Source: Gemmatimonadota bacterium
Lineage (GTDB): Bacteria > Latescibacterota > UBA2968 > UBA8231
DNA length: 64,000 bases
Assembly: GCA_028875345.1 (NCBI GenBank)
Contig: JAPPEG010000101.1
Location: forward strand, 79 to 64,078
Direction: 5' to 3'
Part shown: positions 24,779-30,697 of the stretch, in pieces
Position numbering within the stretch: position 1 is the first letter of the stretch
Layout: each line of letters opens with the position of its first letter
Program-made: the position numbers and the translations under genes
Notes under the pieces: generated by a model
What the model was told of the DNA's origin: nothing
Database searches by the model: none
Seen by the model: only the letters and a program-made list of their open reading frames with translations

Positions 24779-25654
24779 ATGGAGACCACCACGGTAAAAA
24801 TTGATCCCAAAGAAGAAATCGGCTTTATGACGGTCGATGAGACTGATTTTGCCGCTTTCTCCTTAAGCCAGCAGATCCGCCATCTCGAAATGGAGGGCTA
24901 CGTGCTCATGCCAGACGTGCTTGACGCCGAGCACATTGCAGCGCTAAAGGCCGAGCTAAAAGACCTGCCGATGGGACAAAAGGACTACAGCGAGGCTCAA
25001 ACCTTCCACCACGAGCCCCAATGCGCGAGCCGGTTGGTAGCCGAGTTGATCGGCTATCCGCCGATCGCGGAATTCCTCAAAGCGCTCATGGGGCCGGACA
25101 TCGTCTTCACGCACGGGCTTTTTACCCGCACCCTCTCCGGCTCGCCGGGCATTTCAATGCACACCGACGGCCAGCCATTCGGCTCGTCGATCTTTGGCTT
25201 CGAAGGCTCTTCGCCGCGCCTTTTGCGGGTGCTCTACTACCTCGACGACCTGTCGCCCGAGCGCGCGCCCTTCCGGCTCATCCCGCGCTCCCATCTCTCG
25301 TTCCACGCCCAAGCCAACCCGTACGTGCGCTATGTCTCGCACCCGCAGGAAATCACGCTCTGTGCCAAGGCCGGTTCGGTAGTAATGATCCCCGCCCTCC
25401 TCTTCCACGGCACCCATCCCAACAGGGACTTGGCCCCTCGGGAACTGATCCAGTTCGGCTACCGGCCAGCTTGGGCGGGGCCAGTTCAGCCGATGGACGA
25501 GTGGGATTCGGAATGGGTGGAAAACGCGCCGGCCGTGGCCAAACCTTTTCTCCAAAGCCGCAACACCACCGGCAAGGAGTGGAAACAAGTCCACAAACCC
25601 CAGGGCATGCAGCACGACGCACCGGGCATCAATCCAGACCGCTGGGGGGACTAA
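24779..25654 (+). CDS. Phytanoyl-CoA dioxygenase family protein (canonical HxD)
   Basis: AGGAGG SD, MHTDG, IPRSH, FHGTHPN..R. Confidence 0.88.
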   Translation: METTTVKIDPKEEIGFMTVDETDFAAFSLSQQIRHLEMEGYVLMPDVLDAEHIAALKAELKDLPMGQKDYSEAQTFHHEPQCASRLVAELIGYPPIAEFLKALMGPDIVFTHGLFTRTLSGSPGISMHTDGQPFGSSIFGFEGSSPRLLRVLYYLDDLSPERAPFRLIPRSHLSFHAQANPYVRYVSHPQEITLCAKAGSVVMIPALLFHGTHPNRDLAPRELIQFGYRPAWAGPVQPMDEWDSEWVENAPAVAKPFLQSRNTTGKEWKQVHKPQGMQHDAPGINPDRWGD

Positions 25655-25656
25655 TC

Positions 25657-26394
25657 GTGAAACTAGCTGAACTCACTTGGCCCGATCTAGAGCAGGTATC
25701 CAGAGACGACACGGTAGTCGTATATCCCATCGCGGCATTTGAGCAGCACGGGCCGCATCTGCCGTTTATAACGGACACCGCCGAGGTCGCCGCCATCGTC
25801 GATCGCCTCGACGCGGAAATTCCCGATCAGGTCCTCTGTCTCCCGGCGCAATGGCTGGGCTACTCTCCGCACCACCTGCGGTTTAAGGGCACGATAACAG
25901 CCCGATCAGAGACCCACATCAACATGATCGTCGATACCGTCAGCAGCATGGTCCACGCCGACTTCGACAAAATCCTCATCGTCAACGGCCACGGCGGCAA
26001 CGTTCCCAATATGAACGTCTCCCTCCAGCGCCTGATGGAGAAGTGCCCCGACGCGAGAATCTATGGAACCTCTTGGTTTGCCTACGACGAGCTAGGCGAG
26101 ATCAGAGAGGCGGGGCCCCACGGTTGGGGGCACGCGGGCGAGATGGAAACTTCGCTGATGATGGCCCTGCATCCCGAGTGGGTCAAAGCAGATCGCCTGC
26201 AAAAGGACGGCCATCCGCCGCAATCCGAGCGCGCCGGCCAAGTCTCCCGCTACCGCTGGATCCACCAATCGACCGACCAAGGCACCTACGGCGATCCCAC
26301 TTATGGGTCTGCCGAAAAAGGAGAGCGCTTCATCAGCGCTGCAGTCGAGGTGTTGGTCCGCATCGTCGAGGACATAAGGAAAGGTCACTTGTAA
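25657..26394 (+). CDS. Creatininase/creatinine amidohydrolase family protein
   Basis: GTG start; EQHGPHLP..TD, NGHGGN, HAGEMETS. Confidence 0.92.
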   Translation: MKLAELTWPDLEQVSRDDTVVVYPIAAFEQHGPHLPFITDTAEVAAIVDRLDAEIPDQVLCLPAQWLGYSPHHLRFKGTITARSETHINMIVDTVSSMVHADFDKILIVNGHGGNVPNMNVSLQRLMEKCPDARIYGTSWFAYDELGEIREAGPHGWGHAGEMETSLMMALHPEWVKADRLQKDGHPPQSERAGQVSRYRWIHQSTDQGTYGDPTYGSAEKGERFISAAVEVLVRIVEDIRKGHL

Positions 26395-26468
26395 GTCCGT
26401 GAATACAACTTGCCCGGCCAGCACCAAATTGCGACCGTAAGGCTAGCTTTTTTAGAGGAGGACGTCCC

Positions 26469-27482
26469 ATGGAAATGACAAAAAACCAGCGCAAAATAAA
26501 CTGGTATCGGTGTCCCCTGCCGCGCGAGACGCTCGCTGCGCTCAACCAGCGCAGCGACTTTTGGGGGTTACTGCAAACGCTGGGGCATTTGGGTCTGCTG
26601 GCGGCGACGGGCGCAGGGGCTTGGTACGCGGCGGAGCACTTGGCCCTGCCGTGGCTGCTGCTGATCCTCTTTTTCCACGGCACGTTCTACGCCTTTTTGC
26701 TCAACGGCTTCCACGAATTGTGTCACTCCACAGTCTTCAAGAGCAAGTTCCTCAACTACTTCTTCCTGCGCGTGTTCAGCTTTCTCGGCGGGTATAACCA
26801 CATCCACTTCTGGACCAGTCACGCCGAGCACCACAAGTACACTCTACACCCGCCCGACGATCTCGAAGTGGTCCTGCCGGCCCGATTGCGATTCGTGGAT
26901 TTTCTCAAGAGTGCCATTGTAAATCCGTGGGGCTTGTACGCCCGCTACAAGGCGACTTGGCGGCGGGCACGCGGGAAATTAGAGGGCGAATGGGAGCTGG
27001 CGATCTTCCCCGAGTCGGACCCAGACAAGCGGCGACGGCTCATCCGCTGGGATCGCTTCTTGCTGGTGGGGCACGCCCTAATCGTAGTAGTATCCTTGTA
27101 CTTCGGCCTGTGGATGGTGCCAGTGCTCGTTACGCTCGCGCCTTTTTACGGCGGCTGGTTGCTGTTTCTGTGCAACAACACCCAGCACATCGGCTTGCAG
27201 GACGACGTGCCGGACTTCCGGCTCTGCACCCGCACGGTCATCTTGAATCCGTTCTTCCGCTTCCTCTACTGGCACATGAACTACCACATCGAACACCACA
27301 TGTACGCCGGCGTGCCGTGCTACCGGCTCGGCAAGCTGCACGCGGCCATCAAAAGCGACCTCCCGCACTGTCCGCAGGGATTGTATGCAGCGTGGACGGA
27401 GATCGCCGCCATCCTCGAACGACAAAAGGCCGAGCCAGACTACGAATACGTGCCGGAATTGCCCACGCCCGTCGCGGCTTGA
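26469..27482 (+). CDS. Fatty acid desaturase family protein
   Basis: His boxes HELCH, HAEHH, HIEHH. Confidence 0.9.
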   Translation: MEMTKNQRKINWYRCPLPRETLAALNQRSDFWGLLQTLGHLGLLAATGAGAWYAAEHLALPWLLLILFFHGTFYAFLLNGFHELCHSTVFKSKFLNYFFLRVFSFLGGYNHIHFWTSHAEHHKYTLHPPDDLEVVLPARLRFVDFLKSAIVNPWGLYARYKATWRRARGKLEGEWELAIFPESDPDKRRRLIRWDRFLLVGHALIVVVSLYFGLWMVPVLVTLAPFYGGWLLFLCNNTQHIGLQDDVPDFRLCTRTVILNPFFRFLYWHMNYHIEHHMYAGVPCYRLGKLHAAIKSDLPHCPQGLYAAWTEIAAILERQKAEPDYEYVPELPTPVAA

Positions 27483-28166
27483 TCACCACTGCTGCCCCAG
27501 CGGCGTCAGCACCAGTTCATCGACATTGACCCCGCGCGGCTGCGCCAGCACAAAGCACACAGCGTCGGCAACCTCATCGCGGCTCAAGCGACAACGCCGG
27601 CCGCCTTCATCCAACGACACCGGATTGGGGCTAGCCACTGAGCCTAAGGTGATTAAGCCGACGTGGACTCCCTGCTCCGCTGCCTCCCAGCGCAAACTCT
27701 CGCACAGCCCACGCACCGCAGACTCAACCGCCGCGTAGAGCACCGGCGGCCGCGCGCGGATCAACCCCTGCAAGCCGTTGATATGCAGCATCCGTCCGCC
27801 GCTTTGCATTAGCATCGGCAGGGCGGCGCGCGTAATCTGCAACGCGCCGCTTACATCCGTATCGACAAAGGCGCGCAGGTCCTCGTAGCTGACCTCGGCA
27901 AGCGGCCCCTCCACCCAAGTGCCGGCCGCATTGACCAGCGCGTCGAGACTCCCAAACGCCTCCACCGACTCCCGCACCGCAGCTTCGCAATCCGCAACAA
28001 TCCCCACATCGCCCGGCACCGCTACCGCGCCGTCCAACTCAACGGCGAGAGCCTGCACCCTCTCCACACGCCGCGCCATCAGCGCAACTCGGTGCCCAGC
28101 CGCAGCTAGCCGTCGAGCGATGGTCTCACCAATGCCAGAACTGGCACCTGTAATAAGTGCATTCAC
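27483..28166 (-). CDS. SDR family oxidoreductase (atypical catalytic YxxxE)
   Basis: TGASSGIG, NAAG; YAAVE in place of YxxxK. Confidence 0.85.
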   Translation of the reverse strand: MNALITGASSGIGETIARRLAAAGHRVALMARRVERVQALAVELDGAVAVPGDVGIVADCEAAVRESVEAFGSLDALVNAAGTWVEGPLAEVSYEDLRAFVDTDVSGALQITRAALPMLMQSGGRMLHINGLQGLIRARPPVLYAAVESAVRGLCESLRWEAAEQGVHVGLITLGSVASPNPVSLDEGGRRCRLSRDEVADAVCFVLAQPRGVNVDELVLTPLGQQW

Positions 28167-28190: not shown

Positions 28191-28484
28191 TCAACCATTC
28201 AGATAAATATATATGGTCTCCGTCGCCTGACGAGACTCGACGTGCCGCTTCAAATCGGCCCATCGCTCGAAGCCATATTCGCGGGCAATGACCAGTTGGG
28301 CGTTTCTCAAGGAGAACTTGGTTTGAAAAATCTCGTCGTCCGTCCGCTCGGACAAATGCGACAAGGTTTGCCTGAGCCGCTGCGCGCTGGCGGGATCAGC
28401 GGATCGGTGGCCCTTCAGCAGGCTTTTGGCTTGCTTCTTGAGTTGCTCTAGGTTGGGATTGGGCGGAAGCGCAGCCGGGGACAT
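28191..28484 (-). CDS. Stand-alone small helical domain protein (97 aa) of the 'LEQLKKQAK...AQLVIAREYGF.W' family, usually an N-terminal module of ankyrin-repeat and other proteins
   Basis: GAAAGGAG SD and ATG 28484; LPPNPNLEQLKKQAKSLL...LRNAQLVIAREYGFERWADLKRHVE. Confidence 0.8.
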   Translation of the reverse strand: MSPAALPPNPNLEQLKKQAKSLLKGHRSADPASAQRLRQTLSHLSERTDDEIFQTKFSLRNAQLVIAREYGFERWADLKRHVESRQATETIYIYLNG

Positions 28485-28510
28485 ACACACTCCTTTCGCA
28501 GTGCCTGACG

Positions 28511-29521
28511 CTACTCTTCTATACTCCGGGGAATCGGCAAGTTCGCGAGCAACTGGGTAATTTTCCAATCCCCTGACCTGCGACTCAATCCCCAAAATAC
28601 ATATCGCTTCATACTGTGGATCGCCGAGCCTTTTTCGTGGGAGACAGAGACCGTCTCCTCGGTCAAGGCCAAGGCTGTCAACCCGTTTTCACCTAGATTG
28701 GTGTAAATCACGCGCCGATCGATGGTATAGTTCGCATACGTCAATCGCTTTTTCAGCCAAGCCTCAAATTCCTCGGCGTCGCTGAATGCAATGCGCCACT
28801 TAGTTCGGTCCATCAGGTGATAGGCGTCGTAGGCGACGAAGTCCTCATCAACGGCCGCCACTATGGCCCCGATGTCTTTGTTTTGCCAAGCCTCGGCTTC
28901 TCGCTCCAATATGGCCGCGATGTACGTCGCGCTCGCCGCGGAAGCAGGTGCTATAGCCGTGGTATCTGCGATATTTTGGAAGACGCTGGCGGCGAGCCAT
29001 TGGTCATCGTCTTTGGTAAAGGTCCACAGGCGATACATGTCGAGGGACTGGCTAGTACCGCTTTGCCTATCGATGACCAAACCAGAGTCCTGAGTAGCGA
29101 CGATGGCTTTGTCGTTGCGGGCGAGAATAAACAACACCGTGCGGTTGAGATCGTAGCGCCGATGCTCGAAATCAGCGGCTAAGGCTCGAGCTAAGACCGC
29201 TCGGTTTTCGCGGAGCACGGTCCACCCTCGTGGATCCGCCGAATGATGCCCTTCATAGACGACGGCATGATCGGCATAGGCTTGGATGGCTACGTCTGCA
29301 TTTCCCCGACGGTGGCCGGATTTTTCAGTGCTCAAAACCTGGCGGATCAAGACCGTCTCGGGCGTTTCCGCAGCCCAGGCGATACTCCCTAAAAAATTCA
29401 GTGCGACGAGGTAGGCGATGAATCGGTTTTTTCTTACTGCCGCTCCGTTCTCTGCGGAGGCGGAGATGAAACGGGTGAGGATAGGGCTTGCAGCAGGATG
29501 AATCCGAGAATATCGCTGCAT
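28511..29521 (-). CDS. Exported protein with two NTF2-like (SnoaL/DUF4440) domains
   Basis: Signal-like RKNRFIAYLVALNFLGSIAWAA; two repeats ending WTFTKDDDQW and WGLSRRSGDWKI. Confidence 0.75.
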   Translation of the reverse strand: MQRYSRIHPAASPILTRFISASAENGAAVRKNRFIAYLVALNFLGSIAWAAETPETVLIRQVLSTEKSGHRRGNADVAIQAYADHAVVYEGHHSADPRGWTVLRENRAVLARALAADFEHRRYDLNRTVLFILARNDKAIVATQDSGLVIDRQSGTSQSLDMYRLWTFTKDDDQWLAASVFQNIADTTAIAPASAASATYIAAILEREAEAWQNKDIGAIVAAVDEDFVAYDAYHLMDRTKWRIAFSDAEEFEAWLKKRLTYANYTIDRRVIYTNLGENGLTALALTEETVSVSHEKGSAIHSMKRYVFWGLSRRSGDWKITQLLANLPIPRSIEE

Positions 29522-29647
29522 GTGATCTCCCTTCGTTGCGCCTGATGTCCGCGTAGATCAGGCAGAAAAGAGTACACAGCAGGAGATATTCCGAGAGAGG
29601 TGGGCTTGGCCCTTTTGGCGGACTAGGGGGCTCCCTTAAAGCACCTA
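29522..29647 (-). ncRNA. Candidate structured cis-regulatory leader RNA with pseudoknot and SD-sequestering stem
   Basis: Minus strand: AGGUG/CACCU closing helix; hairpins AGGG/CCCU and GGGC/GCCC; junction GUCCGC complementary to GCGGAC in the loop of hairpin GCCUGAU/AUCAGGC; CUCUUUUC pairs with the SD GAAGGGAG. Confidence 0.65.
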
Positions 29648-29653
29648 TTCCGC

Positions 29654-29682
29654 AATCAAAAAGAGCAGTACAACCATGTCAA
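29654..29682 (-). promoter_or_regulatory. sigma70-type promoter for the leader RNA
   Basis: Perfect TTGACA (29682-29677), 17-bp spacer, weak -10 (TTGATT); predicts a start near 29648, the 5' end of the structure. Confidence 0.5.
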
Positions 29683-29707
29683 GAATACTTTTCGGTGCGA
29701 CAGAAAC

Positions 29708-30697
29708 TTAGATAAATCTAGACGTGATTTGCCCCACGGGGGCCTCGCCCCGAGCGTAGCGGTCGAGATTGTCCGCAGCCAGACGCGCTCGCTTGCGCGA
29801 GGTGCCGTCGGTCGAACCAGCGGTGTGGGGCATGACAAACACATTGGGCAATTGGAAAACAGGGGCCGTAGCGTCGGGCGGCTCCTGAGCGAACACATCG
29901 AGCCCGGCCCCACTCAAGCGACCGTCCACGAGCGCTTGGTAAAGAGCGTCCTCATCGACGAGCGCCCCTCGCGCCACGTTGATCAAGCACGCGGTTTCCT
30001 TCATCAGGCCGATGCGCCGCGCGTCAATGGTATGCCGGGTCTCCGGCGTCAGGTGCAGGTGCAGCGACAGGTAGTCGCTCTCGGCCACCACGCGGTCGAC
30101 GTCCTCGGGTCCGCCGAGAAATTCGGGCTGGATCTCGGCGAGGATTTCCTCTTCAATGGGGCGGATGTCGATGGCCAAGATCCGCAGGCCAAAGGGCTTG
30201 GCTCGGCGCGCCAAATCTTGGGCGCTCGCACCAAAACCGATCAGGCCGAGCGTCAGGCCCTCCAACTCGACACCCGTAGGCACGTACATCTTGCGAGCGT
30301 CGAAATTCCGCCGCGCCTCTCCGTAGCGGTGGGCGTGCATGAGGATGAACATCATCGCACTCTGAGCCAACGCCACGCTGCTGAGCTGCCCAGGGCAATG
30401 GGCTAGCAACAATCCAGTACTGAGAATTCCCTCGACATCGACGTGGTCGAGGCCGGTAGTCTGGACCTGGAGGAATTTGACGCCAGCGTCGGTTGCAGCG
30501 GCCAGCAGGTCCGGACTGATATTGCCCCCTAAATCGACGATAGCTTCAATGCCCGCCATTTGCGGCGCGGCTGGCTGGGTGCGGTCGAAGACGCGGAGAT
30601 TGTGTCGGGCACTTACGGCCTCAATCACGTCGGTCGTCCAAGGCGAGGCAATTGCGGCGACCGGGTGGGGCAGAAAGAGAACCTCAAGCCGTCGCAT
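29708..30697 (-). CDS. D-isomer-specific 2-hydroxyacid dehydrogenase
   Basis: GLIGFGAS, INVARG, GLDVFAQEP, PHTAG. Confidence 0.92.
   Translation of the reverse strand: MRRLEVLFLPHPVAAIASPWTTDVIEAVSARHNLRVFDRTQPAAPQMAGIEAIVDLGGNISPDLLAAATDAGVKFLQVQTTGLDHVDVEGILSTGLLLAHCPGQLSSVALAQSAMMFILMHAHRYGEARRNFDARKMYVPTGVELEGLTLGLIGFGASAQDLARRAKPFGLRILAIDIRPIEEEILAEIQPEFLGGPEDVDRVVAESDYLSLHLHLTPETRHTIDARRIGLMKETACLINVARGALVDEDALYQALVDGRLSGAGLDVFAQEPPDATAPVFQLPNVFVMPHTAGSTDGTSRKRARLAADNLDRYARGEAPVGQITSRFI

Follow-up and report, generated by a model that had tools for sequence, protein, structure and literature searches.

A conserved, double-pseudoknotted leader RNA found ahead of genes that begin with one small protein domain in many bacterial phyla

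What a folded leader RNA may control, and to which gene or protein it belongs, is the question raised by a minus-strand element in contig JAPPEG010000101.1 of a Gemmatimonadota bacterium (assembly GCA_028875345.1), of which a stretch of 64,000 nucleotides (nt), here called the window, was analysed. A first-pass annotation of this stretch had described a TTGACA promoter and a leader of ~125 nt with a pseudoknot and a masked Shine-Dalgarno (SD) sequence, had placed in the same transcription unit a gene for a stand-alone helical domain of 97 amino acids (aa), and had proposed that the domain binds the RNA or that the RNA is an undescribed riboswitch or ribozyme. All of the coordinates it gave are correct when checked against the sequence. 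Comparison with other genomes shows the leader to be a member of a large, uncatalogued family of putative structured cis-acting RNAs. In the genomes examined this RNA is found essentially only ahead of genes whose product begins with one domain of ~85 residues, the domain of the 97-aa protein. The leader probably controls the amount of domain protein that is made, and the two readings that the first-pass annotation had hedged, binding of the RNA by the domain and an undescribed riboswitch, remain the leading explanations.

The structural consensus was drawn from 81, and then from 92, aligned members of the family, and base pairs were counted on the 92-sequence alignment. Two covariance models were used: R1, an RNAalifold-based model built from eight sequences of the genus and partly wrong in hairpin P1, and R2, a curated model that replaced it. 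Read 5' to 3', the consensus consists of P1, a short joiner, GUCCGCG(G), AAA, hairpin P2, one base, CCU.., a variable linker, a pyrimidine tract, hairpin P3, the purine-rich SD sequence and AUG. In the 5' domain the loop of P1 is predicted to pair with the bases just past P2 (pseudoknot PK1). In the 3' platform helix P4 would pair the pyrimidine tract with the SD sequence and be capped by P3, the loop of which (..GCGGAC..) would reach back to pair with GUCCGC(G) in the stretch from P1 to P2 (pseudoknot PK2) and so tie the ribosome-binding site into one compact fold. Over these six helices 94.4% of the cells in the 92 sequences are paired, against 36.1-48.5% when the partners are slid by 1-3 columns, and compensatory two-sided changes are found in 24 of the 32 pairs. 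None of 500 shuffles, which ignore relatedness, reaches the observed value on any of five measures. The 81-sequence alignment, with 91.7% paired, gives the same verdicts.

Taken singly, the helices are well kept in the family. P2, the second small hairpin of the first-pass annotation, is paired in 100% of cells, with three of four pairs compensatory (GC to AU in 23-28 sequences). P3, described there as GCCUGAU/AUCAGGC, has the family consensus GCCYG..CRGGC with ..GCGGAC.. in the loop and is 98.7% paired, with three of five pairs compensatory (UA to CG in 28 sequences). The anti-SD pairing that had been proposed to mask the SD sequence, here P4, is 93.7% paired with compensatory changes in six of seven pairs, and the proposed pseudoknot GUCCGC/GCGGAC, here PK2, is 96.6% paired with such changes in four of seven; both pairings therefore covary. 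The compensatory variants of PK2, each in few sequences, are GUCUGCG/CGCAGAC, GUUCGC/GCGAAC, AUCCGC/GCGGAU and GCUCGCG/CGCGGGC. P1 is 87.5% paired, with three of four pairs compensatory, and occurs in two registers or classes, GCGC..GCGC and GCUC..GAGC, with the loops ..AAGG/CAGG/AUGGG. PK1, with 91.9% paired, shows compensatory changes in all four of its pairs. Since neither pseudoknot is contained in the models behind the alignments, the support for PK1 and PK2 is not fitted. PK1 also stands out in an alignment-free test, in which the mean run of pairs is 4.43 base pairs (bp) with the cognate and 3.74 bp with non-cognate partners (4.13 versus 3.07 bp when only Watson-Crick pairs are counted); none of 5000 permutations, which ignore relatedness, reaches the observed mean. 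It measures 3 bp in the window (AGG/CCU) and 4-7 bp in many relatives. These data show the leader, as predicted from covariation, to be a conserved compact fold with the SD sequence within P4, which P3 and PK2 connect to the pseudoknotted 5' domain.

Two other pairings were tried and rejected. The helix AGGUG/CACCU (29646-29642 / 29602-29598), which had been taken to close a junction, has both strands at these positions, but its 55.3% of paired cells is the level of the controls: 483 of 500 shuffles match it on percent paired and slid controls are no worse. Its place is taken by PK1, in which the 3' half, CCU..., is paired with the loop of hairpin P1. The minimum-energy fold pairs GCGGA (29653-29649) with UCCGC, which is 42.1% paired in the family and no better than controls; the transcript probably starts downstream of GCGGA. 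Motifs of the SD-like form AAGG(G)AG are repeatedly found in the loop of P1 and immediately ahead of P2 or within it (29637-29631 and 29616-29610 in the window), and the CACCU after P2 resembles the 16S 3' tail. These motifs are hints of possible alternative pairings of the anti-SD tract or of ribosome stand-by binding.

The genus provides the first measure of what the RNA stands next to. In a DNA search, 10 of 24 genus genomes have the orthologous leader, at 92-98% identity, and diverged copies at 73-78% identity lie directly before genes whose product starts with the domain of the 97-aa protein. R1 gives 52 matches in 19 of 31 genus genomes, four of them in the genome of the window. Among the 41 RNA matches of the genus that were examined, 38 have the domain within 1.5 kilobases downstream. 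It starts exactly at the AUG of the model in 28 of the 41 and within about 20 nt of it in six more, some of which look degraded. It lies farther downstream in four (the window, its orthologue in L016, L049 and the fragmented L034). The three without the domain comprise one truncated and two weak matches.

The same arrangement is found far outside the genus. The cross-phylum set was obtained with a pattern and tblastn scan, with one genome per species, and holds the best 80 of at least 499 confirmed domain places. Its record titles name Latescibacterota, Dehalococcoidia/Chloroflexota, Poribacteria, many Acidobacteriota, Verrucomicrobiota, Planctomycetota, Polyangiaceae, Steroidobacteraceae, Dormiibacterota, Vulcanimicrobiota and others, which we take to make up about ten phylum-level groups. 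The Latescibacterota are the nearest named relatives of the window; two records are titled Gemmatimonadetes. One locus of the set belongs to the genome of an isolate. In 71 of 72 domain loci that are non-orthologous to the window and spread over about ten phyla, R1 finds the RNA on the coding strand and ending at the start codon, and R2 finds it in 91 of 92 sources. The statement in the first-pass annotation that similar leaders precede genes with this domain in other phyla is borne out by these counts. Of the 151 genomes searched in the phylum of the window, 58 have the RNA, one of them in as many as 16 copies.

Searches of whole genomes give the same result. The genome of the window has four RNA copies and four domain genes, in the same four places. 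In five whole genomes of other groups all eight RNA matches abut a domain start, and the RNA is found at eight of nine domain places, the exception being a partial, internal domain match. Pooled over the six genomes, all 12 RNA copies adjoin a domain gene. Because the pairing in these searches is near one-to-one, the link between leader and domain is not an artefact of the choice of loci. A leader that responds to no ligand, be it a constitutive translational damper, an RNA thermometer, a stabiliser of the 5' end or a ribosome stand-by site, might be co-inherited with the domain simply by contiguity. In favour of this, the leader ends exactly at the domain start, so that a duplication carries both, the leader folded by itself already has its SD sequence paired at minimum energy, P1 stands at the predicted 5' end of the transcript, and SD-like motifs of the AAGG type come up repeatedly in the loop of P1 and ahead of P2. 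Linkage alone, however, should often break at such depth and over such a variety of protein architectures, and it is unbroken in the genomes examined; two pseudoknots and a near-invariant core kept across about ten phylum-level groups also exceed what masking of the SD sequence or protection of an end would need. A role of this kind is regarded as improbable.

Some loci depart from the usual layout. L107 (1380-1490), the sole domain locus missed by both R1 and R2, has a shortened, divergent upstream region and is counted as a miss; it keeps a compensated PK2 (GUCUGC...GCAGAC) and a P3/P4-like end and has no recognisable P1/PK1 or linker. L049 (1-1640) is a further operon-type exception, with the leader followed by a 96-aa open reading frame (ORF) without the domain and then, in a single frame, by a tandem pair of domain copies (+311 and +578). 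Six loci, mostly from one genus genome with eight leader copies (L034, L035, L056, L061, L064 and L065), have good leader scores and a domain frame that is fragmentary, shifted or partial, and look like decaying copies.

Degraded copies in one genome and the multi-copy nature of the family are also what could be expected of an element that is no cis-regulator at all: a self-cleaving ribozyme, as the first-pass annotation had allowed, a trans-acting small RNA, or a DNA recombination or operator site marking a mobile 'N-terminal cassette'. The two strands of PK2 (PK2a and PK2b) can likewise be read as a palindrome-like GUCCGCGGAC. The covariation nevertheless keeps RNA pairing and not DNA sequence, the strand and the distance to the AUG are fixed and the SD sequence is included, no ribozyme or other Rfam family matches, and the loci examined showed neither repeats nor mobile-element genes. 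Nothing points to a ribozyme, and these readings are together given only a very slight chance.

The position of the leader relative to its promoter is also conserved. In the window the start of the transcript is predicted near 29648-29645 from the spacing of TTGACA and TTGATT, which agrees with the ~125 nt of the first-pass annotation; the leader would extend from about 29648 to 29522 on the minus strand, with the AUG at 29521. The pair is not among the promoters listed by a consensus scan of the window, TTGATT being missed because it has no A at position 2. Within 70 nt upstream of P1 in the 92 members, 59 of 79 TTGACA-like hexamers (at least five of six positions) end 35-29 nt before P1, and 53 of 114 -10-like hexamers end 11-6 nt before it. 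Since the boxes are fixed in position just 5' of P1, P1 is likely to stand at, or a few bases from, the predicted 5' end of the transcript in most lineages. The leader is accordingly predicted to be transcribed from its own sigma-70-type promoter and to end at the start codon. No U-tract terminator was found after P3/P4 in the window, and any control would therefore be translational. No upstream ORF was found either, the leader having no AUG before 29521.

Contigs from four RNA-library runs, all of one sponge-metagenome study, cover the leader and bridge the junction between leader and ORF. They indicate, weakly, that the leader is present in RNA libraries and nothing further. The leader contig ends at 29633-29636 in all four runs, and no contig lies over 29662-29760. 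These ends are compatible with a start near 29648-29645 and, as they come from contigs of a single study, are no evidence of a 5' end. Contig depth is higher over the leader and cannot be used for ranking parts of the gene.

The window itself is an exception to the rule that the leader ends at the AUG of the domain (Table 1). The 97-aa domain gene does lie in the same gene string, as the first-pass annotation had it, but the gene directly behind the leader is the 336-aa SnoaL-like ORF (Pfam SnoaL_2 24.8 bits, cut-off 27; DUF4440 17.6 bits). In L016, a relative from the genus, the SnoaL-like gene has a leader copy in front of it, and a second copy, 78% identical, immediately precedes the small domain gene. 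In a pairwise alignment ~200 nt of L016 (3813-4025) are missing in the window at 28485-28510; this segment contained the whole of a second leader copy, together with its own TTGACG promoter, and of that copy only the SD end AAGGAGTGTGTATG remains before the 97-aa gene. From this we infer that the leader of the window is a local duplicate that came to head the SnoaL-like gene and that the downstream copy was then deleted. The domain gene would be second in the window because its own leader has been deleted, and one leader would now serve both the SnoaL-like gene and the stand-alone domain gene, which is still behind a leader copy.

Table 1. Features of the leader and of its surroundings in the window
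Feature	Position	Strand	Remarks
-35 box TTGACA	29677..29682	minus	leader's own promoter; read in sequence; unchanged in five genus copies
-10-like TTGATT	29654..29659	minus	17 nt past the -35 box
P1 hairpin	29630..29642	minus	GCUU (29642-29639) with GAGC (29633-29630); AAGG in loop; in minimum-energy fold
PK1 5' strand AGG	29634..29636	minus	in P1 loop; pairs with CCU 29600-29598
PK2 5' strand GUCCGC	29618..29623	minus	pairs with GCGGAC 29552-29547
P2 hairpin GGGC-CAA-GCCC	29602..29612	minus	4-5 bp hairpin in family consensus
PK1 3' strand CCU	29598..29600	minus	one base past P2
Linker	29573..29597	minus	5' domain to expression platform; length and sequence variable, unaligned
P4 5' strand, anti-SD CUCUUUUC	29565..29572	minus	faces SD strand
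P3 hairpin GCCUGAU...AUCAGGC	29540..29563	minus	29563-29557 / 29546-29540; loop carries PK2 3' strand GCGGAC (29552-29547)
P4 3' strand, SD GAAGGGAG	29527..29534	minus	5 nt ahead of AUG
D-2-hydroxyacid dehydrogenase gene	29708-30697	minus	first in gene order of region
Intergenic region, 186 nt		minus	between D-2-hydroxyacid dehydrogenase gene and 336-aa ORF
336-aa ORF	28511..29521	minus	first gene behind leader; hydrophobic N-terminal segment and two weak SnoaL/DUF4440-like halves; without the domain
26-nt spacer	28485..28510	minus	SD end alone left of second leader copy (alignment with L016)
97-aa domain gene	28191..28484	minus	ORF; stand-alone 'LEQLKKQAK...AREYGFERW' domain
Short-chain dehydrogenase gene	27483-28166	minus	last in gene order, behind 97-aa ORF

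Elsewhere in the window, as in the GC-rich part at 25021-27529, there are many long overlapping ORFs on both strands, most of which are likely to be spurious shadows of real genes.

The domain is a protein family of considerable size. In an AlphaFold 2 model from a 37-sequence alignment its ~85 residues form five helices, with a predicted local distance difference test score of 88.3. Out of 1.84 billion, its profile matches 9,962 cluster representatives at a threshold of E<=0.001 and 5,069 when this is tightened to E<=1e-10. Nearly all of the 150 best profile matches begin at residue 1 or close to it. Many of the proteins carry two or three tandem copies, so the domain is not solely a single-copy N-terminal tag. 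It is mildly basic (mean net charge +3.2, range -7 to +10), with K16 and K20 invariant and R36, R38 and R68 conserved. Pfam gives no match at the curated cut-off, the nearest being DUF7553 (19.9 bits, cut-off 27) and DUF6381 (17.6 bits, cut-off 26.6); NCBIfam gives 15 bits to a TrmB model with a cut-off of 402, PADLOC gives no match, and the matches in the ESM Atlas are unnamed 'hypothetical protein' clusters only. Against sequences of the PDB the best E-value of the profile is 0.076. Foldseek finds no match to the domain model at E<=0.001 (best 0.93), and VIA-align over 48,161 chains gives a best Z of 3.8, with a root-mean-square deviation of 5.8 over 63 residues.

What follows the domain is highly diverse. 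In 32 downstream proteins scanned for C-terminal families, the C-terminal parts are mutually unrelated; ankyrin repeats are the commonest, and some have no recognised family. The others include SAICAR synthetase (SAICAR_synt, PurC), BFN_dom nuclease with Clp_N, FliG_N or FliG_C, Peptidase_S9 with a beta-propeller, LON_substr_bdg, AAA_lid, DUF6624 and PcfJ. In four records titled Chloroflexota (L117, L126, L134 and L094) a full-length PurC (NCBIfam equivalog, 425.6 bits) carries the domain and the leader, and this core enzyme of purine biosynthesis would there be under the control of the leader. The N-terminal part of Pfam Glyoxalase_8 (PF20066, profile positions 4-59) aligns weakly to the domain of L084 (1483-2235, residues 9-88) with 19.8 bits, below its cut-off of 23.7, which suggests that the Pfam seed includes the domain fused to a glyoxalase fold. 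A coherent pathway or a transport function for one ligand was not found among the 32 proteins.

This diversity bears directly on the main rival to autogenous control, an orphan riboswitch, in which the double-pseudoknotted 5' domain and the docked P3 loop would form an aptamer for a small molecule or ion. The ligand may lock PK2 and the P3-P4 stack so that the SD sequence stays paired and translation is off, or it may free the SD sequence; the domain may travel with the RNA because both answer, or act on, the same signal. The architecture is that of a riboswitch, with a conserved, covarying aptamer-like core, a variable linker and a platform that overlaps and sequesters the SD sequence. The most conserved bases, GUCCGCGG-AAA-GG and GCGGAC, lie at a helix junction as ligand pockets do, several copies per genome would form a regulon, and the copy in the window directly heads a gene without the domain. 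The downstream genes nevertheless share no pathway, their sole common feature being the N-terminal domain; the near one-to-one link to a domain in six genomes is not known from described riboswitch classes; and the gene context suggests no candidate ligand. This explanation is possible, though on the unlikely side.

Rfam 15 gives no match at gathering scores in the whole window, in keeping with the statement of the first-pass annotation that the RNA could not be assigned to a named riboswitch. On the leader itself there are only chance-level matches (E 0.67 and 6.4), both on the opposite strand, and in 20 family loci from other phyla there is none at E<=0.1. A literature search found nothing on the leader RNA or the domain, the supplementary motif lists of large surveys being places that may hold the RNA. 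The words ankyrin and Acidobacteria do not occur in the main text of PMC5737381 or PMC11109978, two of these surveys. The leader is best described as a new leader-RNA class, the defining partner of which is a promiscuous N-terminal domain.

Between a protein and a small molecule as the partner of this RNA, a protein is favoured because what the leader is linked with is a domain rather than a pathway, because the domain stands at residue 1, and because the junction with the AUG is fixed. The explanation tentatively preferred here is autogenous translational control, in which the domain would stabilise the SD-masking fold of the leader. The fully folded leader would keep the SD sequence paired and translation initiation low, and the stabilising factor would be the N-terminal domain itself, as co-occurrence suggests. 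As in autogenous leaders generally, the RNA stands before the gene of its presumed binder across species (71/72, 38/41 and 12/12 in the sets above). Leader and domain together would then form an autogenous, portable cassette for dosage control, with the domain possibly acting in cis while it is still leaving the ribosome. A stricter form of this proposal, which would be a hitherto undescribed kind of cassette and in which the emerging ~85-residue domain binds its own double-pseudoknotted leader and locks the SD helix so that a set small number of proteins is made per mRNA whatever the C-terminus, would explain why the domain is always at residue 1, why the RNA ends at the start codon, why up to 16 near-identical copies coexist in a genome with no obvious trouble from cross-talk, and why the pair has become attached to ankyrin, PurC, nuclease, protease-adaptor-like and other domains. 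Co-translational action in cis would remove the problem of cross-talk between many copies. This cis-feedback form is considered rather doubtful.

Several observations weigh against autogenous control. Co-occurrence is the sole ground for proposing that domain and RNA bind, and as the leader ends where the domain begins, physical linkage by itself could be enough to preserve the pair whenever it is duplicated. In the Foldseek and VIA-align comparisons given above (best E 0.93 and best Z 3.8) the domain shows no detectable similarity to RNA-binding folds, and some of its members are acidic, with net charges down to -7. A diffusible binder would cross-regulate all of the copies in a genome, which number up to 16 and have near-identical cores. 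The gene immediately behind the leader lacks the domain in both the window and L016, and in L049 a 96-aa ORF stands between leader and domain. Sequence conservation as strong as that of PK2 and the neighbouring AAA/GG is just as typical of a pocket for a small molecule, and PK1 of the window has only 3 bp.

If the family is what it appears to be, a large and phylogenetically broad class of structured leaders is absent from Rfam 15, and its genetic partner is unusually clean, being one small domain without assigned function or fold. It would represent an orphan riboswitch class not seen before or else a new pairing of an RNA with the protein that recognises it. In both cases the leader gives a starting point for finding out what the domain does; thousands of proteins begin with it, among them the many ankyrin-repeat proteins that sponge symbionts and soil bacteria carry. 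A compact module of leader plus tag that sets output independently of its cargo would, if real, be a useful part for synthetic biology. The structure is defined well enough for the direct design of pseudoknot-breaking and compensatory mutants.

Three groups of known systems may be compared with this leader. Translational riboswitches with a bipartite, pseudoknotted architecture include ZTP (pfl), preQ1-III and SAM-II, and the leader resembles them in having two sub-domains, a variable linker, a long-range pseudoknot, a conserved core and an SD sequence sequestered in the platform. It differs in that their Rfam models do not match it even at permissive E-values, and in that its downstream genes are linked by a protein domain and not by a pathway. 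Autogenous mRNA leaders that bind proteins include the long-range pseudoknot operator of L35-L20 in E. coli, the rpsO (S15) pseudoknot, the thrS operator and the cspA 5' untranslated region. These, too, are pseudoknotted 5' leaders whose pseudoknot involves or traps the ribosome-binding site before the gene of the presumed binder, and in the csp family, as here, paralogous genes share one type of leader. Unlike those systems, the presumed binder is here a domain without a recognised fold and not a known RNA-binding protein, and the pair of leader and domain is found on many unrelated C-termini, with up to 16 in a genome. Finally, the Chlorobi-RRM motif, said to have been described by Weinberg and colleagues in 2010, is reportedly an RNA motif defined by the protein domain encoded downstream. 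The present family differs from it in spanning many phyla and in having a domain that stands at the N-terminus of multi-domain proteins and is not among the recognised RNA-binding domains; the two are alike in presenting a conserved leader before genes of one small domain type, an arrangement that suggests feedback by the domain.

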